A stretch of DNA of 64,000 nt from assembly GCA_903864915.1 (NCBI GenBank), contig CAIPHS010000005.1, positions 3,968 to 67,967 of the forward strand, given 5' to 3'. The stretch is from an uncultured Candidatus Woesearchaeota archaeon. GTDB taxonomy: Archaea; Nanobdellota; Nanobdellia; UBA10117. A program made the translations under genes and the position numbers. Positions 4,986 to 57,378 of the stretch are shown piece by piece. The notes under the pieces are model-generated. The model did not search any database and was not told where the DNA came from. It saw only the letters and a program-made list of their open reading frames with translations. How positions within the stretch are numbered: position 1 is the stretch's first letter; each line of letters starts with the position of its first letter.

Positions 4986-4987
4986 AA

Positions 4988-21640: not shown

Positions 21641-22735
21641 ATGGAGTCTGTTGAGGACATTGCTGCAAGGCTGAAAGATATTGAGCAGAAAAGGGAACTC
21701 CTTGCAAAATGCTTCAAAGAAACGGATTCTGCCAAAATAACTAAATTCAAGTTTCCAATCTCGCCGGTTAATCTTAACGGTATAAAAATCTGCGGGGTTG
21801 ATGGTGGCTTCCTGAAAAAAGAATATCACGGTGCAGGCCTCATACTAAGAAGAGCTGTTGCTGTCTGCTTTGAATACATTGATGGCAGGCTGGCCAATGC
21901 CAAATACCATCCAAGCAAGAAACCTTTCCCGGAGCCAATCGTTACCGGTCCTGAATTTTCAGATTATGATTTCAACATACTTGCAAATTTATCAAGGGAA
22001 GAAGTTGAACTGAAGACATGCCTAGAAGCGATTGAGCAGTTCTCCCCAAATGTTCTTGTACGAGACGGTTCTATAGTTTTGCATCCTTCCAGCATGCCGG
22101 AACAATCTTCCAAAGCCTATGGGAAATACAAGGAAATTATTTCTCTTATGAAAGAACTTTACAGGAAATGTGAGGAAAAACACATACTTCTGGTTGGAGC
22201 TGTTGAGGACTCCAAAGGGAAAAGATACTGCAATATCCTGATGCAGGAAGCCATTCCTGCCTTGTTGAAAGCAAACATAACTGTTGAGACTTTGAAAAGA
22301 ATCAATGATTGCAAGGATGTTCTGGAAAATACCACAGACACTTTGTTTTTGTATAATTTATTGAATGTTGGCGAGCGGACAGCAGTTTCAGATTATTCCA
22401 AGACTTCAGAACTACCAATCCTGAAAGACATGGAAGAATATTCGAGGAAACTTTTTGTCCTTTACATGAAAGCTGCAGAATTTGACAGGCCCCTCCGCAT
22501 TGACTTCCTTGCAGACTTTGAGAAGCTCGATGAAACCGCGGAAAAAGCAGCCACAATAATTTTCGAAATTTCAAAACAAAACAGGATGTATTCCTATCCA
22601 TCAGTCTTGATAGAAGCTGACGCCAGAGCCAAATTGATGGAGGATGATATCTTCCACTTTAAGGCAGCATTGGCAGAAAAATTAGGCAGAAATCCCATGT
22701 TGTTTGACTTGAGACGGGATTTGAGGCCGTTCTAA
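21641..22735 (+). CDS. nurA: NurA-type 5'-3' nuclease
   Basis: ICGVDGGFL and LVRDGSIVLHP motifs typical of the NurA domain. Length is about 360 aa, and HerA is nearby. Confidence 0.8.
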   Translation: MESVEDIAARLKDIEQKRELLAKCFKETDSAKITKFKFPISPVNLNGIKICGVDGGFLKKEYHGAGLILRRAVAVCFEYIDGRLANAKYHPSKKPFPEPIVTGPEFSDYDFNILANLSREEVELKTCLEAIEQFSPNVLVRDGSIVLHPSSMPEQSSKAYGKYKEIISLMKELYRKCEEKHILLVGAVEDSKGKRYCNILMQEAIPALLKANITVETLKRINDCKDVLENTTDTLFLYNLLNVGERTAVSDYSKTSELPILKDMEEYSRKLFVLYMKAAEFDRPLRIDFLADFEKLDETAEKAATIIFEISKQNRMYSYPSVLIEADARAKLMEDDIFHFKAALAEKLGRNPMLFDLRRDLRPF

Positions 22736-23898: not shown

Positions 23899-24041
23899 GT
23901 AAACAAAATACTTAGCTTTTTAAAACTACTTAATAGTCTCCTCAAGCCAATACGCGAGAAAAATTTTATTTTTCTGCGCCAGGCTAAACTTGTTTAGTTT
24001 AGCCTCGGAATTCTTATAAATTCGCTTCATCGATTTTAGAC

Positions 24042-31084: not shown

Positions 31085-33361
31085 TTAATTTAGTCTAATT
31101 ATATTATTCCCGACTTCTGCCAGCTTTTCTTCATGCGTTACAATAAACAACTGCTCCAGGAATTCCGGCAGGTGTTCCTGCAGCGCCATCATAAAAGAAC
31201 TAATGGCTGCATCATCAAGGTTATGGGTTGGCTCATCAAGGATCAAGATGTTGAATTCTGGCGCCAGCACTTTTGCAAACGCCAGTCTTAATACTAACGC
31301 GGCAAGCATCCTTTCCCCGCCTGAAGCAAAGCCTGCGACATTTACCCATATCCCTTCTGAAGTCCTTAATTGCAACGTATAATCTATATCAGAAGCCTCA
31401 AGATGTATTGAAGTCCACTTTTCGTAAGGATACAGCTTGCTCCAGAGTGAAGACATGACTTCATTGACAGCAGTTATCAGCTCTTTTCTCAATAATTCCT
31501 GCGCTACCAGCAAGGCACTCCTGAACTGCTGCAAAAACTCAACTTTTTTCTGCAGCTGCGCCATGTCAAGCAGCAATTGTTCGGACTGATTCTGCTTCTT
31601 TATCAGTTCAGACAAGTGCTTATGCTTTTCATCAAGCACATAATCAAGCGATTTCTGCCGTTCATTAAGTGCCATGAACTGCTCGAACTTCTTCCGGAAG
31701 TTTGAATCGGCGGTTTCCAAAACATTGTTGTCTGGTCTTGTGGATAATTTTGCCTGCACTTCTGTCAATTGCGATTCAAATTGCTGCAGCTGTTCCTTTA
31801 ATTCAGCCAAGTGCAATTGTTCCCGCAGTTCAGAGTCTTCTTTCCTCAAGTCCCGCAGTGCGCGCTCAGCACTCTCCAATTCAGACTTGCTTTTCTCAAT
31901 TTCCTGTGTTGAACTTTCAATCTTGCCTTTTGTAGATTCGAATATGGCTTGGTAAGTAGAATGCTGCTTCACCCAATCGGGCTCTTTTTTGAGTTCAGAA
32001 AGCAATTCATCTCGCTGTTCGATAAAATCATCTAATTTGTCTTTTCTGGCAGCAAGTTCTTTTCTCCGGATTGCTGCGCTTTCAATCTTGCCTGCCAATA
32101 CTGATATTGACGATTCCCTTTCGGCAACCAATTTCTCCTTTGTACCTTCTTCCAGCGCCCGCGAGCAGATTGGGCAGGCATTTTTTGCAGATTTCAACTC
32201 TTCCAGATGCTTTTTCAAAAACCTGGTTTCACTTTCTGCAGAAGAGATATCCTTTTCCTGTTCCTTTATCTCCGATTCCACCATTTCCAGTTCGCTCTTT
32301 GCATCTTCTGCACCAAATCTCTGCGTCAACTGCTCAAGCTCCAGTTTATATGCTGAAATTTTTTCCAGTTGTATCTTTGCATCTGATAATTTGCTCTCGG
32401 CAACACTTGATTCCCTTCCAGAAATCATCAAGCTCTTGTTCAAGCTATCGAGGGCTTTGTTAAGCTCGAATCTTGTGGTTTCAAAAGAAGCTAATTTGCT
32501 CTTCAACCCATCTAGTTGGACAATTATCTCCGCCTGCGGCCTGATGGGCTCTTTCAACCTGAGCTTTATCTCGTTAATTTGTGCAATGTAAAACTTCTGT
32601 CTTTCCTCAATTCTTGTAAAAGCAGCAAATTTTACTTTCAATTCTTTTAATTCCGATTCTGCATCAAGCTTTTCCCTCTGCGCAGACGCAATCTTGTTAG
32701 ATATTGCATCTTTCTCTTCAGATATCAGAGAAATCTCATTCTGAAGAGAATCAATCTGCGTTTTGAGTTTGTCAACCTCGAAATTTTTAAGCAAATTCTC
32801 TTTCTCGTCCTTTCTGGATGCAATTTTATTCGCTAATGATACGCAGCTTCTCCTTGCAGCCTCGAATTTATGCACGCCCATCAGTTCATCCAATCTTGTT
32901 TTTCTCTCCTGCGGGTTCAATTGCAGGAACAAATCAATCTCATTCTGCTTTGCGTACACTGTTCTGAGAAAAGTATCTTCATCCAGTTTCAAAATATTCT
33001 TCAGGAAAGCTGTCACCTGTGTTGAATTTGTGCCTGCAAGCATGACACCGTCAGCATCCCGGACTGTGGCTTCAGTGCCCTTGCTGTTGATGATGCGCTG
33101 AATCTGGAAAACCTTGTCTGCTGCATCCAGTTTAAGTTCTATGGATGCCTGCGTACCGGAGTTCCTCTTAACAAGCTCAGAGACCTTAACGTCCCTTCTT
33201 TTCACCTCTGGAACACTTCCAAATAACGCGAAACAGATGGCCTGCAGCACGGATGATTTGCCAGAGCCCATTGGCCCTACTAGGACATTAATGCCTGGCT
33301 TGAAGTCCAGCTCTGTCTCTGTGTGTGACTTCCAGTTCTGCAGCTTGATTTTACTAATCAT
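31085..33361 (-). CDS. rad50: Rad50 ATPase (SMC-like DSB repair)
   Basis: Walker A GPMGSGKSS, long coiled coils, zinc hook CPICSRAL, signature SGGERMLAAL, Walker B ILILDEPT. It overlaps mre11 by 4 nt. Confidence 0.9.
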   Translation of the reverse strand: MISKIKLQNWKSHTETELDFKPGINVLVGPMGSGKSSVLQAICFALFGSVPEVKRRDVKVSELVKRNSGTQASIELKLDAADKVFQIQRIINSKGTEATVRDADGVMLAGTNSTQVTAFLKNILKLDEDTFLRTVYAKQNEIDLFLQLNPQERKTRLDELMGVHKFEAARRSCVSLANKIASRKDEKENLLKNFEVDKLKTQIDSLQNEISLISEEKDAISNKIASAQREKLDAESELKELKVKFAAFTRIEERQKFYIAQINEIKLRLKEPIRPQAEIIVQLDGLKSKLASFETTRFELNKALDSLNKSLMISGRESSVAESKLSDAKIQLEKISAYKLELEQLTQRFGAEDAKSELEMVESEIKEQEKDISSAESETRFLKKHLEELKSAKNACPICSRALEEGTKEKLVAERESSISVLAGKIESAAIRRKELAARKDKLDDFIEQRDELLSELKKEPDWVKQHSTYQAIFESTKGKIESSTQEIEKSKSELESAERALRDLRKEDSELREQLHLAELKEQLQQFESQLTEVQAKLSTRPDNNVLETADSNFRKKFEQFMALNERQKSLDYVLDEKHKHLSELIKKQNQSEQLLLDMAQLQKKVEFLQQFRSALLVAQELLRKELITAVNEVMSSLWSKLYPYEKWTSIHLEASDIDYTLQLRTSEGIWVNVAGFASGGERMLAALVLRLAFAKVLAPEFNILILDEPTHNLDDAAISSFMMALQEHLPEFLEQLFIVTHEEKLAEVGNNIIRLN

Positions 33362-34581
33362 AGTAATTCTTCCGCTTTCTCCAGCTCATTTTCTGCCAGG
33401 CAATTGAACAGCTGCTCAAGCTTTTGCATGTCGACAGGCACTGGCAGGTTATCTTTGATCAATTTCAGGCCCATCTGGTCTGCTGAAATCTTCTTTTCCT
33501 TCAAATCCTGCAGGAGAGTGGTCTTTGCTGCTGCCTCGACAGTTGTAAGGTCAGACTTGTCAATGTCCAGGATTGCTTTTCCTGCAAAATCCTTGTAAAT
33601 CTGCGACAAATTAATATCTGCTGTGCTGAAACCAGGTGCAATCGTCCCCTTGACTTTGACTCTAATCATCGGCTTCTGGCTTTGCACTAATGAAACTGCT
33701 TTTGCAACAGCCTGATGGATTGTAAACTGGATTTCTGCAGGCTTCTTTTCCCTAACTTCAACCAGACAGTAATGTGCGGGCCTTATACGTATGGGTTTGA
33801 ATGAAATGTCGCGCAGTTTTTTCTCAGGCGGCAAATCTATTATGAAAAATCCCTTCTCAGCTGTAGATTCTTTCTGGTTCAGCTGCGTTATGACTGTGGA
33901 GCCAGGTATGAGGATTGGTGCTTTTGTCTTTGGATGCTGTTCCTCAACGCGCCAATGATAATGGCCTGCGAGATAGAAGTCAAACTTTTCCGGCAAGTCT
34001 GCGAATTTTATCGCATTTGTATCAACAGGCATTAACTCTGCCAGATTCTGGTGCAGCATCAAGAAATTGTGCGCATTTTCAAACGGCTCGGGCTTCCAGC
34101 TTAACAATGCATCCCGCGCATAATCTTCCGGCACTCCTGATAAACCGTGAATGCCTATCTTCTCATATCCTATTTCGAGCAGAATAGATTCTGCATGCAG
34201 TAAAGTAATGAGGCCTGCCTTTTCTAAAATCTGTGCAGGATTAGTGCTGTTGGTGTGTCTTCGTTCGTGCGTGCCCCATATGCCAACAACTGCTGGAATA
34301 AGCTCCTTTTTTTCAATAACCTGCTTGTCTTTTGTGACTCTTTTAACGACGCTGACTTTTTTCAGCTTCTTGCTCAGGTAATCAAAAAGCTCGATTGCCC
34401 TTCCAAGTATCTCCTGCCTGGGCAGCTTTTCATGGAAGATATCACCCGCAAGCAAAAATAAATCTGGCTTTTCCTTCAGGGCCAGATCAAAGGCCTGCCT
34501 GGCATTTTCAAAGCTCTCCTCCTGTCTCTCAGTGCCATAAGCAAAGCCGAGATGTAAGTCTGAGAGGAAAGCTATTTTCAT
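33358..34581 (-). CDS. mre11: Mre11 nuclease (calcineurin-like phosphoesterase)
   Basis: Phosphoesterase motifs SDLHLG, AGDIFH, GTHE and GHYH. Confidence 0.9.
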   Translation of the reverse strand: MKIAFLSDLHLGFAYGTERQEESFENARQAFDLALKEKPDLFLLAGDIFHEKLPRQEILGRAIELFDYLSKKLKKVSVVKRVTKDKQVIEKKELIPAVVGIWGTHERRHTNSTNPAQILEKAGLITLLHAESILLEIGYEKIGIHGLSGVPEDYARDALLSWKPEPFENAHNFLMLHQNLAELMPVDTNAIKFADLPEKFDFYLAGHYHWRVEEQHPKTKAPILIPGSTVITQLNQKESTAEKGFFIIDLPPEKKLRDISFKPIRIRPAHYCLVEVREKKPAEIQFTIHQAVAKAVSLVQSQKPMIRVKVKGTIAPGFSTADINLSQIYKDFAGKAILDIDKSDLTTVEAAAKTTLLQDLKEKKISADQMGLKLIKDNLPVPVDMQKLEQLFNCLAENELEKAEELL

Positions 34582-43649: not shown

Positions 43650-43736
43650 GCCCGATTAGCTCAGCGGTTAGAGCGATCGCCTGTTATCTATAAGATAGAG
43701 AGCGATAGGCCCGAGGTTCGAATCCTCGATCGGGCG
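43650..43736 (+). tRNA. tRNA-Asn (anticodon GUU) with an intron of about 14 nt
   Basis: Acceptor GCCCGAT/ATCGGGC, anticodon stem ATCGC/GCGAT, loop CTGTTA[intron]A, T arm CGAGG-TTCGAAT-CCTCG. Confidence 0.85.
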
Positions 43737-43758
43737 CTCAGATTTATGGAGGTACAAC

Positions 43759-46526: not shown

Positions 46527-46549
46527 TCGAATAATCCTCGCAGGCCACT

Positions 46550-47077
46550 TCAAAGGATAGCTTCTATCTTTTTCAGCACAACTATCATGCGTTCAATTGC
46601 ATATTTTGTTGGGTTTTCTTGAGGGTTATAGGGATCAAGTAAAAAGAAATAGCCAGAAGAAGCCCGCAAACCAGGCCAATATTTTTCTTGCGAAAACCAG
46701 CCAAGCAAGTCCATAAGCGACACAAGTTCATTAACCTCTTTTATTACTTGCTCAGCTTCTTTTTTGAGCGCGTCAGGCAGTTTATTTAATATTTTTTTAA
46801 GAGGGTTTGTTAGGCGTTCACGTATTTGCTTGATATAAAGTTGTGAGTTTCTACTCCAAGCAAAAATATGGGGTGCAGGATAGCCGTGATCGCCTAGTTT
46901 GCCCTTGCCCTTCTGAAGTTTATCCTCGAAATCGGCAATAGAAGTTTTAGATATGTTTTTCCAAAGCTCTGGATCTTTATCTAAAAGAAAACGTTCTTCT
47001 TGAGATAACAACTCTTTTGGAATTTTTTCCCGTAAGTCTTTAACCCTGTCGTATAAACCTCGCCTGAGTAAAGCCAT
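46550..47077 (-). CDS. hypothetical protein
   Basis: 175-aa ORF with no motif I recognise. Confidence 0.55.
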   Translation of the reverse strand: MALLRRGLYDRVKDLREKIPKELLSQEERFLLDKDPELWKNISKTSIADFEDKLQKGKGKLGDHGYPAPHIFAWSRNSQLYIKQIRERLTNPLKKILNKLPDALKKEAEQVIKEVNELVSLMDLLGWFSQEKYWPGLRASSGYFFLLDPYNPQENPTKYAIERMIVVLKKIEAIL

Positions 47078-47138
47078 AGATTAAGTTTAACTTGCCGTAA
47101 TATTTAAGATTTTATACGTGGTTGTAGGCCCGCTAATC

Positions 47139-47146
47139 TTTTAAAA
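47139..47146 (+). promoter_or_regulatory. TATA-like box (TTTTAAAA) for tRNA-Glu
   Basis: Located 24-31 nt upstream of tRNA position 1. Confidence 0.45.
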
Positions 47147-47169
47147 GACGAAAATCGCACTTAATCTAC

Positions 47170-47284
47170 GCTCCCGTAGTCTAGCCCGGTTAAGGATAAG
47201 GGATTCTCGCAGCGCGAAGGCCTAGCTTTGCTGGGTTTCCGCCGGAAACATCCCTGGACACGAGTTCAAATCTCGTCGGGAGCA
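47170..47284 (+). tRNA. tRNA-Glu (anticodon CUC) with an intron of about 41 nt
   Basis: Acceptor GCTCCCG/CGGGAGC, anticodon stem AGGGA/TCCCT, loop TTCTCG[intron], T arm ACGAG-TTCAAAT-CTCGT. Confidence 0.8.
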
Positions 47285-47285
47285 C

Positions 47286-47837
47286 TTATACATCTGCATA
47301 GAATGTTTCTGGCTGTAAAACAATTTTTCCTATGTATTTTTCGTATTCCGGATTCATTCGTGCAACAAAAGGTGTAATGGTACAAGCTGCGGTATTTCTC
47401 AGCATAACTGGCAGCTCAGAATCCCAGTCAATATTGTTCCAAAGGTATTCTATGCATTCTGCATACTTATCATTAAATTTAAGGTCCTCTGGTGCATAAT
47501 TAGGAAGATTTACTCGCCAGGGCTCAGATGCAAGTGGCTTCCAGAAAGTGACTTCGCGCTCTTCCACTAACTGCAATATTTCTGAGAGGACCTTTTGTGG
47601 AACAACAGCAAGCCCTCGTGCACAAAGTTCGCCCTTTTTATAAATCTCTATACTTTTATCAGGATTAAGGAAAATTGGCACAACGTTATTTCTGTGAATC
47701 TCATAATATTTTTGTTTAACTTTATTTTCAGCCGGGCCCGCGGGTGATATAATCGCGATATCTTTTCTTGAAATGTATATTTGCCCTATCTCCTTTGGAT
47801 GTAAGCATAATAAGCAAGATTCTAAAGTGGCATGCAT
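47286..47837 (-). CDS. hypothetical protein
   Basis: 183-aa ORF. Its stop codon lies 1 nt from the 3' end of the convergent tRNA-Glu. I recognise no motif. Confidence 0.6.
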   Translation of the reverse strand: MHATLESCLLCLHPKEIGQIYISRKDIAIISPAGPAENKVKQKYYEIHRNNVVPIFLNPDKSIEIYKKGELCARGLAVVPQKVLSEILQLVEEREVTFWKPLASEPWRVNLPNYAPEDLKFNDKYAECIEYLWNNIDWDSELPVMLRNTAACTITPFVARMNPEYEKYIGKIVLQPETFYADV

Positions 47838-47893
47838 GTATTTGCCTTAAATAAGGCAAGCCAATTTAAATTTTTGTTTAAATTACTATACAA

Positions 47894-49120
47894 TCATTTT
47901 GCTTTTGTTGGATTTAGATTATAGTTTTCGGGCAAGCAGGCGTAGTGCTGAAATAGCTCTGCTGGTGTTATGTTTATTTGCCGCAAAAGTTTGCAGAAGC
48001 GCCAGCAGTTATAATCTGCGAAGCAGTCACTGCACCCGTCCTTTTTAAGAGGCTCATTTACTTTACGGGTTTCTAGCCAACTTGCAGGATTTTGCAAAAG
48101 AAGTTTCTGCCTTTCTATGGACTGATCGATGCGATTTTCCAGATCTATTATGTGAGGATTCTCTAGTGAGTATTCGAACTCGCAGATATCAAACACTGTT
48201 TCGCGATAGCTTGGGAGTATTGCTTTGTAATCCGGCGGGGTATAAGGCGGGCGTTCGATTATTGTCAGTATGCTTTCGGGCTTAATTTTAAGGGTTTGAC
48301 AAACGCCCAAGCCATAAAATAAAAGCTGGTCTTTTTGCGTAGTCGACTGAGTTCGCTTTCTGTCCAAAACTGCAATATGCTTTGTGCTTCCCCACTCTTT
48401 TATACAGGCCAGCCCGTCAAATTTGCCCTGAAGTCGCCACCCGTCTCTAGTCTGATAATAAACGCGCTTTTCAGCAAATTCCTCTCTTGACATGCCTGCT
48501 TGATTGTGCAAGAATGGTCTTTGCCTATCTTCTGGTTGCTGATTGTAAATTAGGTGTGCTAATGTGCCTAGCAGGCCTAAAGGATTGTCTTTCGGCCTGA
48601 AGCCATCATCTAACATTTGCGGCATAATTTCTAAATTGGCTAAAATACGGTAAACTTCACACCAATGATTAACGGGAGAGATGCGCATATCGTATTCGCG
48701 GAATGGCTGGCTTTCAAAAGGCAAGAATTCAAATTGGCCTTCGCCTCTAATTTCGCGCAAGAATTTTTTGCCATTTCCTTTTATACCAAAAAATTCGACC
48801 TCTTGGTTCATAGAATTCAATCTATCTTTAGATGACTCTATGCTATTACACATGTAATTGCGCTTATAGGTGTCCTCAACCAACAGCTTGACATGATCGC
48901 CAATAACTTCTTTTTTGTCAATTAAATCTTGCAGAAACGTTGCTGTGCAGGATTGTTTTTCTGAATTTAGGCTTGGGTTATCACAAAGCCTATTCTTACA
49001 TCCGCACTTGAAGAAAGCCAGGCTAACTTCTTCGTTATTCAATAACCTTGCGACTTGGGGGCATGATTTTAACATAGCCGGTGTTGCACTATTTGTTTTC
49101 GCTTTGGAAACCAAGCACAC
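47894..49120 (-). CDS. Cas4/RecB-like PD-(D/E)xK nuclease with Fe-S cysteines and an N-terminal Cys-rich extension
   Basis: Motifs appear in the canonical order: WCEVYR (N-terminal Cys), GTLAHLIY, LQGKFDGL, IAVLDRKRT (DxK), QLLFYGLG (QxxxY) and C-terminal CSDCFADYNCWRFC. The extra N-terminal ~150 aa contains CGCKNRLC. An alternative start is at 49075. Confidence 0.75.
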   Translation of the reverse strand: MCLVSKAKTNSATPAMLKSCPQVARLLNNEEVSLAFFKCGCKNRLCDNPSLNSEKQSCTATFLQDLIDKKEVIGDHVKLLVEDTYKRNYMCNSIESSKDRLNSMNQEVEFFGIKGNGKKFLREIRGEGQFEFLPFESQPFREYDMRISPVNHWCEVYRILANLEIMPQMLDDGFRPKDNPLGLLGTLAHLIYNQQPEDRQRPFLHNQAGMSREEFAEKRVYYQTRDGWRLQGKFDGLACIKEWGSTKHIAVLDRKRTQSTTQKDQLLFYGLGVCQTLKIKPESILTIIERPPYTPPDYKAILPSYRETVFDICEFEYSLENPHIIDLENRIDQSIERQKLLLQNPASWLETRKVNEPLKKDGCSDCFADYNCWRFCKLLRQINITPAELFQHYACLPENYNLNPTKAK

Positions 49121-50145
49121 TTGAAGTTATTTTTCAAAATCTTAATTGCGCTTGGGCTAATCTCTCGCTGCCTGCTTTTTTTTGCGTCGTCACGTCTCAT
49201 TAGCTCAGATTCTGTGATTTTGAAATTAGATGCATAAGGAGATTTTATAACTGCTTGATAAATTTCAGAACCTTTTATTGCATAGATATTTATTTTATTT
49301 AATCCTAGCCTAGACCACAAACCTTTTTCTGGACTTGTATAAGCTGCGCTAAACAAAAATGCGCAAATGTATTTAGTTGCATCTATATCGCGAATTTGTT
49401 TGCGCCTGTCTTCACCTATAATTCCATCGTGTAACAGTAAACTTTTTGCCAGTTCTGAAGAAAGGACCGAAGTATGGAAATCTGAATTGGGCTGCTGTAC
49501 AAGCGGCTCTTTTGTAATTTCCTTTTCTAGACTTCCAAATCCTTTTTTATTTCGTGCTCGCATTTCTTGGTTCACCTGTTCGAAAACATCCTTGAAATAA
49601 TAGCACACAACAGATTTAGGGTAAAGATATGGAATTTTAACAAATTCCATAAAGTCTGTCATGAACATAAACAAATCAGCTTTGTACGCGTCTAAAGGTT
49701 TTGAAGTTTCTTTTTGGAAATCTTCGTCTAGCTCTTTAATTGCTGAAACCAAGATATTGCTCAGCTCGAAGTCTTGTGCAATGGGGTCGTGACCTACAAG
49801 TCTTTTCCTGCCTTCGCTCTGGTTTGGCGACTCCCCAGTAAACCACCATATTCTTTTGTCCTTTATACTGTCCAAATTTTTGGCTACAAGCGCATTGTGC
49901 CTGTATATAATTTCTTGTGCCGCAACATATTTCCACTTTTTAGAACCCACTTCCAGCGCGTCTTCAACCAAACATATCTCTTCTTCCAAAATATTCCGCA
50001 AATAGCCTTGCTCAAATCTGCTTCGCGGCAGGTCTTCCAAGAGCTCACTTTTAGACGGAAGAAAGGGCAGCAGCCGGTAATATAAATAATATATTGCTTT
50101 GCGGGGGTCTGAGCGAACACTTACTGGGGATGTCCAGCCTGGCAT
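49069..50145 (-). CDS. hypothetical protein (first gene of the Cas4-like operon)
   Basis: 358-aa ORF that overlaps the downstream nuclease gene. It is divergent from the PolB-like gene across a 50-nt gap. I recognise no motif. Confidence 0.6.
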   Translation of the reverse strand: MPGWTSPVSVRSDPRKAIYYLYYRLLPFLPSKSELLEDLPRSRFEQGYLRNILEEEICLVEDALEVGSKKWKYVAAQEIIYRHNALVAKNLDSIKDKRIWWFTGESPNQSEGRKRLVGHDPIAQDFELSNILVSAIKELDEDFQKETSKPLDAYKADLFMFMTDFMEFVKIPYLYPKSVVCYYFKDVFEQVNQEMRARNKKGFGSLEKEITKEPLVQQPNSDFHTSVLSSELAKSLLLHDGIIGEDRRKQIRDIDATKYICAFLFSAAYTSPEKGLWSRLGLNKINIYAIKGSEIYQAVIKSPYASNFKITESELMRRDDAKKSRQREISPSAIKILKNNFKCAWFPKRKQIVQHRLC

Positions 50146-50195
50146 GGCATGAAACTTAAAGTTACTCTTAAAAGACTTCTGTAAAAATTGCTTCT

Positions 50196-53009
50196 ATGCC
50201 TTCGATAGTTTGGGATATATTGCCTGCTGCTGGAAAGGGCGGCACAGAATGCTGGGTCTATTTGCGAAAAAACGACAAAACCGTTAAAATTCAAAAAGAT
50301 TTGTGTCAAATATTCCTATCAAGATGGAATTCTAAGCAAAATATCGAAAAGCTTAGATCGAGTTATGAGCTAAACTCTCCAAATATTAAAACTGAAATAC
50401 ATGATGCGGGGGAAGGCCGTTGGTTTTTAGAGATACAAGGCCCCCGCAGCCTCGATGAGATATTGGATAAAAGTTCTTTTAGAAATTCTCCATCAATTTA
50501 CGAATCATTCGCACTACAGACAAAGCCTTTTTCTTTAATTGACGACGCTGGCGATGCTAGTGAGCAAGCCTCTGTTGAGGACATTTGCAACCAGACGGTT
50601 GCCGTACTCGATATAGAAAAGCAAGATTGGGAGCCTAACTCCGGCAGGACGCCCAAGATTTGTGCAGCATCTATCGGAATTTCAAAGCCCGATGGTGCAC
50701 AAAAGTATTACACAACTGCAATCTGGCCAATACACAAAGAAGGGATAGATTCTGAGCATCTCCCTGTTCGAAATCCTCTTGAGCTAGCACTTTTGACATC
50801 TTACATTCTACGAAAAGAAGACCCAGGATTCGTCGCTGGCCAAAACATACAGAAATATGATTTTGAAGAGCTAAAGATGAATTACAGAGGACTTTTCACA
50901 GCAGGTGGAAGGAAAGAATTTTTTGAGAGATTAAAGAATAGCAGGGAAGGAAAAGATAAGGATCTAAATCTTGAAGATATCAGCAAATCTCTTTCAGAGT
51001 TAGAACACGCAATTGAGCATTGGTACGAAACTGGCGAGATTAAATTTGAAAACAGACTTGGCTTTAGAGTGTTTGATGAATTTACTGCATTGCTTTCTTA
51101 TATCAGCCAAATGACTCAAGAATGGGCTGCAACAGGTGTGCGGCCTTTTTATCTTCAAGATAGACCGGATAAGGAAAACATACACACAACGCTGCTAAAA
51201 TTAATTAGGCAATTTGAGCTTCCAGAGCAGTTGAAAGATTGGCTTGCTGAAAAATACAGCAAAGGCACGAAGGCTAACCTGAAACGTGCTGTGGAAAGTG
51301 GAGAAGAATTGCCGGAATGGCTGCAAATGCGCCTTCGCACGGATTTTAGCAATGACTTGGAAAAAATTTGCCGCCATAATTTAGCAAAATTAGTCAAGGA
51401 GGGGGTTTTCCTTCTTGGTATTGACAAAGAAGAACCGGGCTTCAAGTCGGTCTCATATATGCGGAAGCAGCATTGCGCTGGCTTGCAAATAATAGACACT
51501 TACACCTTTTCGCATAACCATCTGGATTTGCCGAATGACAAGCTTCCAACAATAATAGCTCACTTTGATGACTGCTATGTCAAAGCTCTAAAACATGGAG
51601 AAATAACACCAACAGCTAGAGCTGCTGAGGCTGGCGATAAGATTTCTGGAACTAAATTAGTAAAGTATAATTTAGAGGACGTCAAAGCCACTTTAAAGCT
51701 CACACGCACGATAATGCCAACCGAAGCAGAGCTCGCCAGATTATACGAAACAGATTTTGCAACTGTTAGTACAACTTCAATTGGCACTGTACAAGATATA
51801 CTTTTCAAGAAGCAAAACTATGGGAAAAAGAGATTCTGGCGCATATTTTATGATGCAGAAAAAGACATATTGGAAGAAAAGTTTAGACCTGCTCAACCCG
51901 GAAATAGGCGCGAGGAGCCAGGGCTAGGTTTTGACTTTAAGGCAGAGAAAGGTAATTTTGAGCAGCTAACTGCAATTTACCCCACACATATTTTCAGGGC
52001 TTTAGAAGCGCTGGTGCGAAGCAACCCTTGCGGCGAACATCTTTTGAAACTTTTTGGAGCTGAAACTCGCCCAACTTTCAAAATAATTTATGCCCAGCAT
52101 CTTGACAAGCTCTGCACGAGGCTCCTTTATGATACGGAATCAATGCGGGATGTCTTTGCTTTAGAAGAGCAAACATCGCAAAACCTTAAGGAAAAAGTAA
52201 TAACTGCTGCAGAAGAGCTAAAGGACTTTTTAAGCAAACACAGCTCAAATGTTGTAAATGCGTCTAAGAGGCTGGCTTTTCTTAAAGGCCCACCTAATTT
52301 GGAAAGTGAGCTGCGAGCAAATCCAAATCTGTATTTTGCAGGCATTGCTGAAAAAGTTTCGTCTAAAACAAAAGGCAGAATAGCTGCTGGCTTGAATGGT
52401 AAAATCTATAGCTCTGGAATTACTTTAGACAGACGGAGCAGAAAAGGTGACTTGTCTTACATTGATAAAATAATAAGAGAAGAGACCTTCAGTATACATT
52501 TTTCCAAGCTTAGCACAAGCGAGAAAGTCTCTGCGCTACAAAACTTGTTTTCAAGCTTAGAAGGTCAAATAATAGAGCATTATTTCTTTGAAGACAAGCC
52601 TAGCAGGCCCCTGTCCGATTATTCTATATCTTACACTAATACGAGGCGGTATCAAAGGATGGAATTAGCAGAAGCAAAAAGTGGTGAGCTTGTCCTTGGT
52701 GCGTACATTTTGAACAAAGGTTTTGTGCCACATTGGGCAATTGAAGAGAATGATAAGCCAGACTTAGAAGTTTATAGAACTAAGCTATTTGGGCCCCTTA
52801 AAAAAGACAAAAGCAAAGGCAGAAATCTCACAGGAGGTGTGGTTGGTGATTGGTTGTTGTCTATGTTCAATGCCAAAGGGAAATATGATGTTTATAGCGC
52901 TTTAAGCAGGCTTTGTGAATGCAGGGCACACGGAGCAGATTTGCAATTATTGGCAAAATCATACGATTTAAACGTACCTGTGCAGCAAGCAACCCTATCT
53001 TCATTTTAG
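50196..53009 (+). CDS. family B DNA polymerase homolog: exonuclease motifs intact, polymerase catalytic motifs lost
   Basis: Exo I VAVLDIE (aa 139-141), Exo II GQNIQKYDF (aa 216-223) and Exo III YNLEDVKATLKL (aa 491-495) are present. The motif A region reads EKGNFEQLTAIYPTHI (YP kept, Asp-bearing strand missing). The motif C position reads NASKRLAFL (no DTD). The KxY region reads KTKGRIAAG...GITLDRRSRKGD. Confidence 0.8.
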   Translation: MPSIVWDILPAAGKGGTECWVYLRKNDKTVKIQKDLCQIFLSRWNSKQNIEKLRSSYELNSPNIKTEIHDAGEGRWFLEIQGPRSLDEILDKSSFRNSPSIYESFALQTKPFSLIDDAGDASEQASVEDICNQTVAVLDIEKQDWEPNSGRTPKICAASIGISKPDGAQKYYTTAIWPIHKEGIDSEHLPVRNPLELALLTSYILRKEDPGFVAGQNIQKYDFEELKMNYRGLFTAGGRKEFFERLKNSREGKDKDLNLEDISKSLSELEHAIEHWYETGEIKFENRLGFRVFDEFTALLSYISQMTQEWAATGVRPFYLQDRPDKENIHTTLLKLIRQFELPEQLKDWLAEKYSKGTKANLKRAVESGEELPEWLQMRLRTDFSNDLEKICRHNLAKLVKEGVFLLGIDKEEPGFKSVSYMRKQHCAGLQIIDTYTFSHNHLDLPNDKLPTIIAHFDDCYVKALKHGEITPTARAAEAGDKISGTKLVKYNLEDVKATLKLTRTIMPTEAELARLYETDFATVSTTSIGTVQDILFKKQNYGKKRFWRIFYDAEKDILEEKFRPAQPGNRREEPGLGFDFKAEKGNFEQLTAIYPTHIFRALEALVRSNPCGEHLLKLFGAETRPTFKIIYAQHLDKLCTRLLYDTESMRDVFALEEQTSQNLKEKVITAAEELKDFLSKHSSNVVNASKRLAFLKGPPNLESELRANPNLYFAGIAEKVSSKTKGRIAAGLNGKIYSSGITLDRRSRKGDLSYIDKIIREETFSIHFSKLSTSEKVSALQNLFSSLEGQIIEHYFFEDKPSRPLSDYSISYTNTRRYQRMELAEAKSGELVLGAYILNKGFVPHWAIEENDKPDLEVYRTKLFGPLKKDKSKGRNLTGGVVGDWLLSMFNAKGKYDVYSALSRLCECRAHGADLQLLAKSYDLNVPVQQATLSSF

Positions 53010-53015
53010 TAAAGG

Positions 53016-53023
53016 TTTAAAAG
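53016..53023 (+). promoter_or_regulatory. TATA-like box (TTTAAAAG) for tRNA-Leu
   Basis: Located 24-31 nt upstream of tRNA position 1. Confidence 0.45.
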
Positions 53024-53046
53024 TAAAAATTTTGGAATCTTATTGC

Positions 53047-53130
53047 GCGAGGGTACCCAAGCGGTCAAAGGGGATGGACTTAAGATCCATTGGCTCAGTG
53101 CCTTCAGAGGTTCAAATCCTCTCCCTCGCA
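53047..53130 (+). tRNA. tRNA-Leu (anticodon UAA), long variable arm
   Basis: Acceptor GCGAGGG/CCCTCGC, anticodon arm ATGGA-CTTAAGA-TCCAT, variable arm TGGCTCAGTGCCTTC, T arm AGAGG-TTCAAAT-CCTCT. Confidence 0.9.
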
Positions 53131-53174
53131 TTTAATTAAAAATTTATTTAAACCCTAACCATGCTAAAATTGGT

Positions 53175-54152
53175 ATGCTTATTGAAATCAAGAGTCTGAC
53201 TAAGAAATACAATTCTTTTGTTGCTGCAGACCATATTAATCTTTCAATAAAATCTGGAGAAATTTTTGGCCTGCTCGGCCCTAATGGTGCTGGGAAGACA
53301 ACAACACTAATGATGCTTTCGACCTTGCTAAAGCCAACAACAGGCACTGCAATAGTCAACGGTTTTGACATAATAAAAGAACCTTCACAAGTAAGAAAAT
53401 CAATAGGTATGGTTTTCCAGGAGCCAAGCTCGGACGAATTGCTAACCGGCTATGAGAATCTGAAGCTACATACAATGATGTTTGGCGTACCCGCAAATTT
53501 GCGCGAGCAGCGCATAAAGGAGGGTTTGGAGCTTGTTGGCCTGACTGCTGAGAAAAACCAGCTGGTCAAGAAATATTCTGGTGGAATGCGCAGGCGCCTT
53601 GAATTAGCCCGCGGTTTATCGCACCATCCAAAGATAATATTCCTCGATGAGCCAACCCTTGGTCTAGACCCCAACGCAAGGGAACAGATATGGGCATACA
53701 TAAAGAAACTCGTGAAAAAAGAGAATGTCACAATCATAATAACCACACACTACATGGATGAAGCTGACAGGCTTTGCGATAGGATTGCAATAATCGACCG
53801 GGGCAAAATTGTTGCAATAGATTCACCGGAAAATCTAAAGAGAAAAATCGGCGGCGACATCATACAATTGAAATTCAAAGGAGAACGAAACTTAAATTCT
53901 CTTAAAAAATTAAAGTTTGTCAAGAAAATCGACAAGTTTGAGAATGGCGCGGCGCTGACGGTCTCTGATGCTTCAAAGCATCTTCAGGAAATCTTGAAAG
54001 TGATAGGTACTGTAGAGTCTGTTGAGATGCGCACGCCAACGCTCAATGATGTATTCTTGCATTACACTGGAAAAGAATACCACCAGAATGGCGAGTCACC
54101 CGAAGGTGGATTCTTCGAGAAGGCTATGACTTACAGGGCGAGGTCAAAATGA
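53175..54152 (+). CDS. ABC transporter ATP-binding protein (ABC-2/DrrA-like exporter)
   Basis: Walker A GPNGAGKTT, signature YSGGMRRRLELA, Walker B IIFLDEPTLGLD. Confidence 0.9.
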   Translation: MLIEIKSLTKKYNSFVAADHINLSIKSGEIFGLLGPNGAGKTTTLMMLSTLLKPTTGTAIVNGFDIIKEPSQVRKSIGMVFQEPSSDELLTGYENLKLHTMMFGVPANLREQRIKEGLELVGLTAEKNQLVKKYSGGMRRRLELARGLSHHPKIIFLDEPTLGLDPNAREQIWAYIKKLVKKENVTIIITTHYMDEADRLCDRIAIIDRGKIVAIDSPENLKRKIGGDIIQLKFKGERNLNSLKKLKFVKKIDKFENGAALTVSDASKHLQEILKVIGTVESVEMRTPTLNDVFLHYTGKEYHQNGESPEGGFFEKAMTYRARSK

Positions 54153-54895
54153 GCGAGCTTAGTGGCCTTCTTGCGATATGGGAACGCGAGTTCAGAGTAT
54201 TCCTTAGAGAAAAGTCAAGGATTTTTGCATCATTGCTTTCACCACTGATGTGGCTTTTTATTTTCGGCGGGGGTGTTGGCTCTGCCCTGTCAACAAGCAG
54301 CTTTAATTATCAAACATTCATATATCCAGGTATTATAGTAATGTCCTGTCTTTTCACATCGATTTTCTATGGTGCGTATGTCATATGGGACAAGCGTTTG
54401 GACTTCTTGAAGGAAGTTATCGTCAGCCCGCTAAGCAGAACAACAATCTTTTTTGGCAAGGCTCTTGGCGGCGTCACTGATGCAATAATACAGGCGTCAG
54501 TACTTGTATTATTGGGACCCATATTTGGAGTTCATTATGGTTGGTTCCTTATTCCGCTATACGCTGTACTGTTCATCATGATAACTGGGCTTGTCAGCAT
54601 AGGCCTAATCATAGGCAGCCTAATGGAATCTCCAGAAGGCTTCGGCCTTATAACGAGCCTGATTAACTTTCCACTGTTTTTCCTTTCAGGCGCACTTTTC
54701 CCTCTCGATAATCTGCCTTCATGGCTCAAAGGAATAACCTTGATGAATCCTGTGACTTACGGCGTCGATGCTGTACGAAGCCTTATGCTAGGAACAAGCA
54801 CATTTGGTCTGTTCAAAGACGTGCTAGTTTTAATTGCCTTTGCAGTTATCATAGTGGTTATTGGAGCTTGGACTTTTAGCAAGATGAAAGTCTGA
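54149..54895 (+). CDS. ABC-2 type transporter permease
   Basis: 248 aa with about 6 TM helices. It overlaps the ATPase gene by 4 nt (ATGA). Confidence 0.85.
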   Translation: MSELSGLLAIWEREFRVFLREKSRIFASLLSPLMWLFIFGGGVGSALSTSSFNYQTFIYPGIIVMSCLFTSIFYGAYVIWDKRLDFLKEVIVSPLSRTTIFFGKALGGVTDAIIQASVLVLLGPIFGVHYGWFLIPLYAVLFIMITGLVSIGLIIGSLMESPEGFGLITSLINFPLFFLSGALFPLDNLPSWLKGITLMNPVTYGVDAVRSLMLGTSTFGLFKDVLVLIAFAVIIVVIGAWTFSKMKV

Positions 54896-54957
54896 TTTGC
54901 CAAACCTTAAAAATACATTTTAAATCTCTTATTTGTGGGCCTTAGCGGTCTGCTAAA

Positions 54958-55041: not shown

Positions 55042-55058
55042 TTAATTTTTAAAAAAAA

Positions 55059-56036
55059 TTAGCCGGTCTGTTGCCAGACCGCGCTTTGGGATTCGCCAGT
55101 TGATGCTGTTCCAGCTGCAAATGCTTGTTCCATTGTTTCTTTAACATTGTCAGGAACAACTCCGACAGGATTCAGCGCATCATCCATAGCCGGAACGCCC
55201 TTATGTGCATTCAAGCAGTATGTCTTGAGCTCAAACACCCTAGACTGGCCTGCAGGGATATAAGCCGTTACGGGCTCGCCAGCCCCAAGATCCTGATTTG
55301 ACCCGCCAACATTGGCGAATTTCGTTCCAAGCTGGATGTTTAAGGCCAAATTATGGGCACCGCTGTTAAACGCATCAATAGTCATGCTAGTGTACCCATG
55401 TGGCGTGTATCTAAGGCTCAACCTACTCTCGAATACAGTAGTACGGACGCCAGCTATGCATTTAGAAAATGGCTGTGTTTCGCACTTATCAATAAAAGGC
55501 AACTTCCCTTGTATTGCTACCCATTCAATTTCAGTTCTGCCGTATGCCTTTAACCACACTATATGCAGTGCTTCATAGTCAACGCCCAAATAAGCCCAGA
55601 TCTTGAATTGCTTATCAATTAAATCCCTCTGGCTGTTACCTGGCGACTTGATGATGTGCATTATTAGGTCATCAACCTGGCCAACTACATGGTAATAGGC
55701 GCTAGGCGGATATTCAATCGGAGCACCAACATACGGATTAGAGTACGAATCAACTAAGGGTTCTTCGTTAACTTTCACTTGCCCAACAGGCTTTACGTTA
55801 AAGTCCAGATACAATGCCCATCGCGAGTCTATCGCAACATAAGCCACACCATAAATACTGTAAACGATATCGCCTGGTTGCGCATCATACACACCTAAAG
55901 TGTGCAAATCAATAGGCACGGGTTCAAAATTACCCCATACTGGTTGCACAGGATTATCCAGAGGAACTGCACTCACACTTATAATAAATATGAGCACGAT
56001 TGCTGCCAAAACCGCAACTATCTCATTTTGTTTCAT
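55059..56036 (-). CDS. secreted/membrane-anchored protein, function unknown
   Basis: 325 aa with an N-terminal anchor helix (IVAVLAAIVLIFIISVSA) followed by a beta-rich domain. Confidence 0.6.
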   Translation of the reverse strand: MKQNEIVAVLAAIVLIFIISVSAVPLDNPVQPVWGNFEPVPIDLHTLGVYDAQPGDIVYSIYGVAYVAIDSRWALYLDFNVKPVGQVKVNEEPLVDSYSNPYVGAPIEYPPSAYYHVVGQVDDLIMHIIKSPGNSQRDLIDKQFKIWAYLGVDYEALHIVWLKAYGRTEIEWVAIQGKLPFIDKCETQPFSKCIAGVRTTVFESRLSLRYTPHGYTSMTIDAFNSGAHNLALNIQLGTKFANVGGSNQDLGAGEPVTAYIPAGQSRVFELKTYCLNAHKGVPAMDDALNPVGVVPDNVKETMEQAFAAGTASTGESQSAVWQQTG

Positions 56037-56314
56037 TTTTTGCCACTCTTTATTTTGGATACGATTAGATGGCTTGCTATGAAAGCAATCGCTAACACTG
56101 GCAAGAGAAATATCTTAGCAGCCTCGCTTGCCCGTTGTGCAACATCAGCAAGTGTATAACAAAAATCCACAAACATGCCTTCCGGTATAGGCCCGCAATG
56201 CGCAAACCTTAAATAATCCATAAATGTCAGGCAGTATATTACGCTCTCTGTAACCGCTGCTATTAGCAGGGTTAAACCTATTTTCTTTTTGATAGTATCT
56301 TTCATTTTTATCAC
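56033..56314 (-). CDS. small membrane protein
   Basis: 93 aa with 3 hydrophobic helices. It overlaps the downstream gene by 4 nt. Confidence 0.5.
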   Translation of the reverse strand: MIKMKDTIKKKIGLTLLIAAVTESVIYCLTFMDYLRFAHCGPIPEGMFVDFCYTLADVAQRASEAAKIFLLPVLAIAFIASHLIVSKIKSGKK

Positions 56315-56405
56315 CTGTATGCTATAGAAAACAAGTCGTATATATACCCAGAAGTAAGTTTCAATCTAAATTGAAGTTATTAAAAAATTACAAATTTTTA
56401 AATTC

Positions 56406-56430
56406 CTCAAGCTCGCATCGCGAGTTTGAG
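56406..56430 (-). terminator. hairpin just after the stop of the ArsR-like gene (putative terminator)
   Basis: CTCAAGCTCGC-ATC-GCGAGTTTGAG forms an 11-bp stem with one G:U pair. On the minus strand a T-rich tract follows it. Confidence 0.4.
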
Positions 56431-56436
56431 TTATGC

Positions 56437-57012
56437 TTATTTCCTAGATTTGTAAGCAAGATAAATTCCTGCCAAGATTCCAAAAACCAGTGCTGCTATT
56501 AAAATAACAACACCTAAATCAAAGCTTGCGGAAGGGCCTACTTCTAACAACGATAAAGTTTTTGCGCCCTCCATTGCTGGCGCGCCTGCAAATTCGGTAG
56601 CAGTTGTTTGTGTAATTTTTTGAAATCCGAATAGCAAACCTGTTGCTATTGAAATAATTGTGATTATTGGAAGTATAACTTTATCGCCAAGCATTTCGAT
56701 TATACCTTGCTTTGCAGTTTCCGGAGCCAGTATGATAGCCTTTTTAGCAGGTTCGTAATATTTTATTTCCCTGCCTTTTTTACTATACCTTTTAGCTGTT
56801 GCTTTGATCAAGCCAGCAGCTCTCAACAAGTCTAAATTAAATTGAACAGTAGACATGGGAAAACTCAGTTCTTTTGATATTTCTGAAGGAGTTCTGCGGC
56901 CTTCAGCAAGCAAATCTAGTATGGCTTTTGCCTTTTTGCTTTGTATAACCCTTGCTATTTCCCTAGCCTTCTCTTCTTTCATTGAAAATACAACAAATTT
57001 CTCGTCAACCAT
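56437..57012 (-). CDS. ArsR-type wHTH protein with C-terminal TM helices
   Basis: KAKAILDLLAEGRRTPSEISKELSFPMSTVQFNLDLLRAAGLIKA forms the HTH, followed by two hydrophobic helices. Confidence 0.75.
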   Translation of the reverse strand: MVDEKFVVFSMKEEKAREIARVIQSKKAKAILDLLAEGRRTPSEISKELSFPMSTVQFNLDLLRAAGLIKATAKRYSKKGREIKYYEPAKKAIILAPETAKQGIIEMLGDKVILPIITIISIATGLLFGFQKITQTTATEFAGAPAMEGAKTLSLLEVGPSASFDLGVVILIAALVFGILAGIYLAYKSRK

Positions 57013-57060
57013 TATAGTCTGGAGTAAACAATAGACTTTAAAAACCCTACTATAATTTCA

Positions 57061-57378
57061 ATGCACATGGTATTGAGAAAACCTACTGCAAACGATAAGC
57101 TGGCATACTTCACACGCAGAGCTTTAGGCGAGAAAGGTAAGGTTATGCTATGGCGCTTTGCTGATGAAGACCTAACGAACGTAGAATACATTTGCCAGCA
57201 TTGCGGCAAGCCTGGTGAGAAGCAAGTCATGTTTGAAAGGACAAAAACTTCTATTAAGAAACCCAATGGCAAGCGAAAATCTGTACAGGCATTCATACTG
57301 AAATGCGACTCCTGCAGCCAGGATATGGTTCTGGAGCAATGGGTAAAGAAAGGCAAAGGCAAGAAAAAGGCAGCATGA
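57061..57378 (+). CDS. small zinc-ribbon protein
   Basis: CQHCGKPG ... CDSCSQ (CxxC ... CxxC) and a basic C-terminus. Its stop overlaps the downstream start (ATGA). The antisense ORF 57012..57362 is rejected. Confidence 0.6.
   Translation: MHMVLRKPTANDKLAYFTRRALGEKGKVMLWRFADEDLTNVEYICQHCGKPGEKQVMFERTKTSIKKPNGKRKSVQAFILKCDSCSQDMVLEQWVKKGKGKKKAA

Follow-up and report, generated by a model that had tools for sequence, protein, structure and literature searches.

Most DPANN archaea encode a solo-Cas4 nuclease of unknown role (PMC5704561). Family-B DNA polymerases (PolB) have been surveyed across the archaea, with groups B7 and B9 found in Woese- and Pacearchaeota, and with a PolB2 (B2) group that has no Exo III and shows no conservation of the Exo I motif (PMC7544198); the operon partners of PolB2 are arCOG07300 and an inactivated RadA, and a function in repair or replication control has been proposed (PMC4104785). 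The polymerase survey describes no PolB that keeps its exonuclease while lacking the polymerase and does not mention Cas4 (PMC7544198), the Cas4 phylogenomics paper mentions no polymerase (PMC5704561), and a full-text literature search for DPANN Cas4 together with a PolB exonuclease returned one unrelated virus preprint only. Here we describe a conserved unit of three genes, referred to as the trio, in a 64,000-nt stretch of DNA (the window; contig CAIPHS010000005.1, positions 3,968 to 67,967 of the forward strand) from an uncultured Candidatus Woesearchaeota archaeon. The unit consists of a PolB-like gene (937 amino acids, aa), a gene for an uncharacterised protein (358 aa, tentatively referred to as X) and a Cas4/RecB-type nuclease gene (408 aa), and it is arranged as follows.

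Positions 50196 to 53009, plus strand: PolB-derived protein, 937 aa, with an N-terminal domain, a 3'-5' exonuclease domain and a recognisable thumb.
Positions 50146 to 50195, no strand: divergent intergenic region of 50 nt, between the start codons of the PolB-like gene and X.
Positions 49069 to 50145, minus strand: protein X, 358 aa, of an uncharacterised family; its gene overlaps the nuclease gene.
Positions 47894 to 49120, minus strand: Cas4/RecB-type PD-(D/E)XK nuclease, 408 aa, with a GTG start; an alternative ATG at 49075 gives 393 aa.

The trio is undescribed in the searched papers and family libraries. For its three genes and for a fourth, 183-aa gene downstream of the nuclease, we obtained no match in PADLOC, PHROG or NCBIfam and none above threshold in Pfam, which agrees with an initial annotation of this DNA that could match the genes to no described system. 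The sole PADLOC exception, a homing-endonuclease match on the PolB exonuclease region, was judged spurious.

The nuclease, the PolB-like protein and X of the window were compared with the loci of relatives, and a relative was taken as an informative context where enough of its contig was available. These loci are the following.

L001: sister strain of the window; trio present.
L002: PolB-like protein of 997 aa, X of 381 aa, nuclease of 408 aa.
L003, L004 and L005: PolB-like protein of 810 aa, fused X-nuclease protein of 685 aa.
Contig of P0035: PolB-like protein of 815 aa, fused X-nuclease protein of 697 aa.
L006: PolB-like protein of 816 aa, split X, nuclease of 442 aa.
L007: trio in the same divergent layout.
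L090: PolB-like protein of 770 aa, X of 329 aa, nuclease of 388 aa.
L091: PolB-like protein of 899 aa, X of 332 aa, nuclease of 364 aa.

The trio has an identical divergent layout in all eight informative contexts (L001, L002, L003-L005 taken together, the P0035 contig, L006, L007, L090 and L091): a large gene without Pfam domains (770-997 aa) is divergent from X and then the nuclease, or from a fused X-nuclease gene. The large genes of the relatives are homologues of the 937-aa protein (BLASTP, e.g., E 1e-23 to 1e-6), and the nucleases of these loci are 21-32% identical to that of the window. All three large proteins of the window have homologues in other contigs and are real genes rather than chance open reading frames (ORFs). 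Between the window and its sister strain, the module is 94.8% identical at the nucleotide level over 5.9 kb, and the PolB-like protein, the nuclease and X are each about 96% identical. The linkage between the PolB-like gene and the nuclease put forward in the initial annotation is therefore genuine, as the divergent pairing is kept in every informative relative. The four-gene neighbourhood that it also proposed holds for the PolB-like gene, X and the nuclease but not for the 183-aa gene, which has no homologue in any other trio locus.

Beyond the trio, an all-against-all comparison of the neighbouring genes found no other gene common between loci, except for extra neighbours of the related pair L008/L090, and a candidate fourth conserved small gene was rejected by the same comparison. 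The flanks vary from locus to locus, all of them housekeeping genes: ribosomal-protein operons, an RNA polymerase operon, EF-2, Sec61beta, aminoacyl-tRNA synthetases, AdoMet synthetase and RtcB/archease. In L002, a HerA-type ATPase gene (3680-5749, minus strand) follows the PolB-like gene after 61 bp, on the same strand, and may be co-transcribed with it; nothing else points to a motor protein linked to the trio. Other searches added little to this set of relatives, since a word-indexed protein search found relatives of at least 96% identity only, even with the family profile as query, and no relative was confirmed by a genome-contig scan with the PolB-like protein or by metagenome-contig scans with the family alignments.

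Gene linkage within the minus-strand pair is tighter still. Wherever they are unfused, the X and nuclease genes overlap by 4-35 nt, with X homologues immediately upstream of the nuclease in L002, L007, L090, L091 and L006, and in two lineages the two are fused (P0028, 685 aa; P0035, 697 aa), the N-terminal halves of these proteins being homologous to X (BLASTP E 2e-4 and 4e-10, respectively). X is an obligatory partner of the nuclease, and this overlap or fusion of the genes makes a 1:1 unit of the two proteins very probable. In L006 (4057-4984), a contig from the Rifle aquifer, X is represented by two overlapping ORF calls (99 and 222 aa) with ambiguous residues in the translation, which may reflect a frameshift or assembly problem rather than a true split.

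The spacer between the two divergent transcription units is also conserved. Its length, given as 50 nt in the initial annotation and recovered as such here, is 54 nt in L002, 50 in L003, 51 in L006, 54 in L007, 50 in L090 and 51 on the P0035 contig; L091 alone has a longer one (128 nt), so that seven of the eight layouts fall within 50-54 bp. In the window, a palindromic TATA-like element, CTTAAAAG, lies at 50167-50174, centred 25.5 nt from each start codon, and a palindromic CTTAAAAG- or TTATTTAAATAA-like A/T element is found at the midpoint of all six short spacers with readable DNA (the window and five relatives). Archaeal TATA boxes lie about 26 nt upstream of transcription starts. Because the midpoint spacing of the element fits this distance, the spacer may be a shared, bidirectional putative promoter with one site for the TATA-binding protein (TBP) and two leaderless divergent transcripts. 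If two units start around one TATA-like element, all three proteins should be made together.

The alignments support reading the 937-aa protein as a derivative of a family-B polymerase with a predicted intact exonuclease site, in which the carboxylates of the polymerase motifs A and C have apparently been replaced. Pfam PolB models did not match it at E<=1, and NCBIfam and PHROG gave no match either. A single-sequence phmmer search against the Protein Data Bank (PDB) matched residues 401-545 to the exonuclease domain of Thermococcales PolB (E 2e-5). Six homologues, 17-26% identical to the window protein, were then collected from the neighbourhoods of the nuclease homologues, and the resulting seven-member family profile matched Thermococcales PolB at E 7e-26 in two stretches, one covering the N-terminal and exonuclease domains (PolB residues ~70-376) and one covering the KxY/thumb region (~581-735).

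The seven-sequence alignment has ten invariant columns, and three of these are the exonuclease carboxylates D139, E141 and D495. Exo I corresponds to D139/E141 (DxE, invariant in 7/7) and Exo II to N217..D222 (Nx2-3[FYS]D in 7/7, after correction of a MAFFT misplacement), while Exo III corresponds to Y491..D495 (Yx3D), with D495 invariant and the tyrosine present in six of the seven. The palm motifs were assigned, with some uncertainty, by local pattern and by position relative to the thumb segment aligned by the hidden Markov model (HMM). A motif-A-like GNFEQ...IYPT at 586-597 follows the pattern G-x-F-x-[NQ]...IYPT, with the aspartate absent in 6/7; a motif-B-like KIIYAQHLD starts at 629 (pattern K-I-I-x-A-Q-x-L-D); and at 686 a motif-C-like VVNASKR (pattern [VI][VI]N-x-[STG]-x-[RKH]) stands where DTD is expected, with no acidic pair. 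The initial annotation had called the protein a PolB with a dead palm and a live exonuclease, and the family alignment and profile bear this out, the exonuclease motifs being intact and the polymerase carboxylates lost. On this evidence, we read the PolB-like protein as a probable primer-terminus-binding 3'-5' exonuclease rather than a polymerase, and, since all four exonuclease carboxylates are conserved, catalysis is favoured over a pure scaffold role. The C-terminal QQATLSSF (930-937), which resembles a Q-x-x-L-x-x-F-like tail in some members, may be a PCNA-binding peptide of the PIP type, though the evidence for this is weak.

The nearest conceptual precedent is PolB2/Dpo2, which is likewise a divergent PolB paralogue with substituted polymerase residues in a conserved operon-like neighbourhood of uncharacterised partners. 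The trio protein differs in that it keeps Exo I-III, in its partners (X and a Cas4-like nuclease) and in its distribution among DPANN archaea. Membership in the PolB2 group itself was considered and rejected, as the Exo motifs are intact and the neighbours are X and the nuclease, with no small helical protein or RadA-like gene (criteria from PMC7544198 and PMC4104785). The C-terminal module of Pol epsilon also retains the PolB fold after loss of polymerase catalysis; however, its exonuclease site has been lost as well and its role is that of a scaffold, whereas the exonuclease site of the trio protein is invariant.

These two precedents suggest another explanation, namely that the trio is a replisome component in which the PolB-like protein is either a scaffold, like the C-terminal half of Pol epsilon, or an active specialised polymerase, like PolB2/Dpo2, with the nuclease and X as accessories. 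The thumb is retained, the PIP-like tail Q-x-x-L-x-x-F occurs in some members, and there is a precedent for 'inactivated' PolBs in conserved operons, such as PolB2 with arCOG07300 and an inactivated RadA (PMC4104785). A scaffold is nevertheless difficult to reconcile with four invariant exonuclease carboxylates, which PolB2 and the Pol epsilon C-terminal half have lost (PMC7544198), and an active polymerase with the replacement, in most members, of the motif C aspartates by Ser/Thr/Gly and Arg/Lys/His and of the motif A aspartate by Asn/Gln. We regard a replisome role as quite improbable.

For the second enzyme of the trio, the window nuclease was the query in an exhaustive phmmer search of 1.84 billion representatives, which retrieved 14 distant relatives and gave a family alignment of 15 members. 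Direct searches with the window nuclease gave no family match in Pfam, including PF01930 and PF12705, and no PDB sequence match; five of the 15 members match PF12705 (PDDEXK_1; best E 7.7e-7), and none matches PF01930. S148, G185, H189, E217, G232, D235, D253, K255, Q265 and Y269 are invariant in the alignment, and the catalytic set of the RecB/Cas4 type is complete (H189, D235, D253-x-K255 and Q265xxxY269). Four cysteines (C154, C363, C366 and C372) are near-invariant, and their arrangement, C154...C363-x2-C366-x5-C372, is the predicted Fe-S cysteine pattern of the Cas4/AddB type. Every motif quoted in the initial annotation is present on invariant or near-invariant columns (WCEVYR at 153, GTLAH at 185, GKFDG at 232, VLDRKR at 251, QLLFYG at 265 and CSDCFADYNC at 363).

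Structure prediction is consistent with this assignment. The AlphaFold2 (AF2) model built from the family alignment has a mean predicted local distance difference test score (pLDDT) of 80.8 and a predicted template-modelling score (pTM) of 0.85. Foldseek against the PDB gave AdnA as the top match (E 9e-4), followed by ACE1 (3.5e-3), Cas4 SSO0001 (5e-3; template-modelling score 0.40-0.45 on the target) and type I-C Cas4, and then by lambda exonuclease and AddAB; the AdnA, ACE1 and Cas4 structures together span E 9e-4 to 4e-2 with probabilities of 0.84-0.98. Against BFVD, the matches were RecB-like and Cas4-like viral exonucleases, with E down to 4e-5. The invariant catalytic residues, these structural matches and the PF12705 matches of five members all agree with the initial assignment of the 408-aa protein as a Cas4/RecB-type Fe-S PD-(D/E)XK nuclease. 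Its Cys-rich extra N-terminus, also pointed out at that stage, is real: of the four cysteines in this extra module of the first ~135 residues, three (C20, C39 and C58) are near-invariant in the family and the fourth, C46, is conserved in most members. In the AF2 model, the cysteines lie in beta-hairpins, with three helices and another beta-hairpin after them (together roughly residues 17-135). The model suggests a Zn-ribbon plus a winged-helix-like domain.

The window nuclease resembles the solo-Cas4 of DPANN archaea in its PD-(D/E)XK core, its four Fe-S cysteines (C...Cx2Cx5C), the lack of CRISPR association and its small-genome archaeal host. It differs in matching neither PF01930 nor PF12705, in carrying the extra four-Cys N-domain of ~135 aa, and in being strictly coupled, and sometimes fused, to X and paired with a PolB-derived gene. 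CRISPR-associated Cas4 was rejected as an identification, there being no repeat array in the window and no cas match among the 36 ORFs scanned or in the relatives' loci. AddAB/AdnAB offers a further comparison, as it has two nucleases, one per strand polarity, and shares the Fe-S RecB-type nuclease domain, with AdnA the top structural match. Unlike AddAB/AdnAB, the trio has no helicase/ATPase domain (no P-loop or helicase family matched the three trio proteins or their relatives), and its predicted 3'-5' activity would come from the PolB DEDD domain rather than from a second RecB-type domain.

Protein X gave no Pfam, PDB-sequence, NCBIfam, PHROG or PADLOC match, and its AF2 model, built from a thin alignment, is unusable (pLDDT 42). 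Its conserved motifs include an N-terminal SDPRK..YY..PFLP, hIFxTGxS, GFGxLEK, NxxFxxSLF and a C-terminal MRN...SAxxIL. The first of these, being a family motif, favours the 358-aa start over the 333-aa call found in JGI records.

We propose that the trio forms one complex that would process DNA ends, gaps or flaps of both polarities, and that DPANN archaea of the Woesearchaeota/Pacearchaeota type carry it as a module on the chromosome and inherit it vertically; to these two statements taken jointly we give an even chance. The PolB-derived subunit would grip the junction of a duplex with its 3' end and remove 3' tails or damaged 3' termini. Characterised Cas4, AddB, Dna2 and Exo5 enzymes thread and cut 5' single strands, and the Cas4-like subunit may do the same. 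DNA binding or bridging would fall to the Zn-ribbon/winged-helix N-domain of the nuclease and to X, the latter as an adaptor. A likely setting for such a complex would be recombinational repair, replication restart or lagging-strand maturation. More tentatively, the trio may represent an unrecognised three-subunit nuclease machine widespread in DPANN, in which an ancient PolB paralogue was turned into a 3'-5' exonuclease and entered a fixed complex with a solo-Cas4 and X.

Several observations weigh against this proposal. The palm and fingers have no HMM alignment to solved PolBs (seven-member profile against the PDB), so that motifs A and C are judged to be lost from local sequence patterns; the L091 member has an aspartate at the motif A position; and D557 and E561 (FDIxEEK motif), invariant in a five-sequence alignment, have no assigned role. 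PolB2/Dpo2 was also predicted to be inactive and, according to the abstract of PMC8764526, was later shown to be active, a case that equally favours the replisome alternative. For X, a ten-member profile matched neither PDB sequences nor Pfam, leaving no detectable fold or motif assignment. The conserved set contains no helicase or translocase, and a resection role would need an outside motor; the window, moreover, already encodes the canonical archaeal resection set of NurA, HerA, Mre11 and Rad50. Finally, the phmmer search over all representatives yielded only 15 clusters at 50% identity.

An anti-invader defence system, in which the two nucleases would degrade foreign DNA and X would be a sensor or regulator, is suggested by the fast evolution of the module (21-32% identity between lineages in which FttA is about 50% identical). 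Some DPANN solo-Cas4 genes adjoin restriction-modification genes, and a defence role has been suggested for them (PMC5704561). Further, the best structural matches include ACE1, a Cas4 associated with Argonaute, and genes for ParE-like toxins occur close to the module both in the window and in L006. However, leaving aside the spurious homing-endonuclease match, PADLOC recognises none of the four proteins, and the neighbours in 8/8 contexts are translation, transcription or repair genes and not defence islands. The module is also single-copy and of native composition, and it is kept in a sister strain that has different accessory genes on the flanks. The presence of a DEDD proofreading domain on a PolB scaffold, in addition, points to primer-terminus specificity and not to bulk degradation. 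We consider defence unlikely, and rank it, together with the replisome and mobile-element explanations, below end or flap processing.

The module lies between two tRNA genes, and the initial annotation, in which these genes bracketed a four-gene module, had raised the possibility of a casposon, provirus or other domesticated mobile element. Both tRNA genes and all four ORFs are present. The features outside the trio are as follows.

Positions 47170 to 47284, plus strand: tRNA-Glu(CUC), 115 nt, from a focused Rfam search (48.2 bits, gathering score 29); a flanking landmark only.
Positions 47286 to 47837, minus strand: lineage-specific gene of 183 aa, downstream of the nuclease and outside the conserved module.
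Positions 53047 to 53130, plus strand: tRNA-Leu(UAA), found by ARAGORN and Rfam; a flanking landmark only.

The tRNA bracket did not survive the comparison with relatives, since no tRNA gene flanks the trio in L002, L003, L006, L007, L090 or L091, and the conserved unit has three genes; a tRNA-bracketed island was accordingly rejected, the indels relative to L001 also lying outside the module. The bracket, like the 183-aa gene, is confined to species-level relatives of the window. The 183-aa gene is probably co-transcribed with the nuclease. Its product has no family match in Pfam, NCBIfam, PHROG or PADLOC and no homologue beyond the species-level relatives of the window, and it evolves much faster than its neighbours, being 81% identical in L001 versus about 96% for the PolB-like protein, the nuclease and X. 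It was rejected as a module member on the grounds of this low identity and of the lack of homologues in other trio loci.

Evidence for mobility was sought in repeats, gene content, relatives and composition. No tandem or CRISPR-like arrays were found in the window and no att-like direct repeats or terminal inverted repeats (TIRs) around the module. No cas or integrase families were found among the 36 window ORFs scanned with Pfam, which are a part of the window's ORFs, and no cas domains in any relative's locus; the earlier statement that cas1/cas2, a CRISPR array, an integrase and TIRs are lacking stands within that scope. Searches of IMG/VR, INPHARED and PLSDB gave no relatives from viruses, phages or plasmids. 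The GC content, third-position GC content (GC3) and codon usage of the four genes are within the range of other window genes, and the tetranucleotide correlation between the module and the rest of the window is 0.952, where other segments as long as the module average 0.950 (range 0.914-0.972); the composition is thus that of the host.

Casposons resemble the trio in combining a PolB gene with nuclease genes in archaea, and differ from it in that the trio has no Cas1 (in the ORFs scanned) or TIRs, and has a degenerate polymerase, a housekeeping context and native composition. The position of the module, between two tRNA genes in a tRNA-rich, indel-prone region, would be explained if a mobile element (casposon, provirus or plasmid) had integrated between tRNA genes and its remnant had since been domesticated. 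PolB and Cas4-like genes also co-occur in casposons and archaeal viruses, which counts in favour of this reading. Against it are the lack of att-like repeats or TIRs and of cas1 or integrase genes among the ORFs scanned, the host-like composition, the lack of relatives in the three virus and plasmid databases, and the absence of the tRNA bracket from six other loci. The DNA that varies between the sister strains lies outside the module, and a degenerate polymerase fits poorly with a self-replicating element. With housekeeping flanks in every locus as well, a mobile-element remnant is already largely refuted, and we regard it as highly improbable.

The variable DNA itself consists of three window-specific insertions relative to L001, all outside the module and abutting tRNA genes. 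One (46541-47249) holds a gene for a 175-aa protein, ParE-like in its C-terminal part; residues 88-160 of this ORF (46550-47077, minus strand), which is absent in the sister strain, resemble a ParE-toxin-like ORF beside the L006 trio (BLASTP E 1.5e-5). The second (53132-54957) encodes an ABC-transporter ATPase and permease between tRNA-Leu(UAA) and tRNA-Leu(CAG), whereas in L001 tRNA-Leu(CAG) directly follows tRNA-Leu(UAA). The third (55055-57066) comprises a 325-aa gene without a Pfam match and an ArsR/TrmB-type helix-turn-helix (HTH) gene. The tRNA genes clustered at 43.6-59.6 kb appear to form a hot spot for indels. The tRNA-Glu(CUC) gene, missed by ARAGORN and by the whole-window Rfam run, has a 43-nt insertion in the anticodon loop that corresponds to an archaeal-type intron. 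Its L001 orthologue (1332-1407) has 76 nt and no intron in adjacent DNA that is ~95% identical, an intron presence/absence polymorphism between close relatives. Many tRNAs of the window bear introns according to Rfam. Long genes (100-112 nt), presumably with introns, lie at 1838-1947, 4878-4985, 6126-6237 and 18949-19048, found by Rfam only and missed by ARAGORN, and ARAGORN assigns no anticodon to the tRNA at 43650-43737.

The rest of the window carries genes of an archaeal chromosome, including an MCM AAA+ protein (431 aa), NurA, HerA, Rad50-Mre11, FttA/aCPSF1 and several aminoacyl-tRNA synthetases. FttA is 81%, 80% and 76% identical to proteins of 'Candidatus Woesearchaeota' and 'Nanoarchaeia' metagenome-assembled genomes (MAGs) and ~50-55% identical to those of a wide range of Woese-, Pace- and Nanoarchaeota MAGs; because of these identities, the host is, as judged from this marker, a DPANN archaeon of the Woesearchaeota type. 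With MCM AAA+, NurA, HerA, Rad50, Mre11 and the trio, the 64-kb window has a wealth of genes for DNA repair and replication. The MCM homologue (1948-3243, minus strand; 431 aa) contains the AAA+ and lid domains only, and a 515-aa ORF upstream of it (3316-4863, minus strand), which has no Pfam match, might be a diverged or split N-terminal part. In the NurA/HerA region (21641-25541), an opposite-strand ORF of 388 aa without a Pfam match sits between the two genes, and Rad50 and Mre11 form a separate operon (31085-34581), 6 kb from NurA/HerA. A possible AP endonuclease ORF suggested by a first pass over the window was unconfirmed by domain search.

Given that the role of solo-Cas4 is an acknowledged open question (PMC5704561), the trio offers testable partners and a biochemical hypothesis. 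The partnership is marked by the fusion to X, by a putative promoter held in common with a PolB-derived exonuclease, and by synteny that survives down to ~22% identity. The PolB-like family appears to be the mirror image of PolB2 and the Pol epsilon C-terminal module, with the exonuclease site kept and the polymerase site lost. Because the models of Pfam, NCBIfam, PHROG and PADLOC miss the trio, it is probably missing from current counts of polymerases in archaea and of the repair repertoire of DPANN. The divergent spacer of 50-54 bp, with its central TATA-like palindrome, may serve as a natural case for bidirectional transcription initiation in archaea. If the trio is indeed a three-subunit machine, it would for the first time give the solo-Cas4 of small-genome archaea that lack CRISPR a concrete role in the cell and a set of partners, and it would add a new exonuclease-only class of PolB to polymerase evolution.

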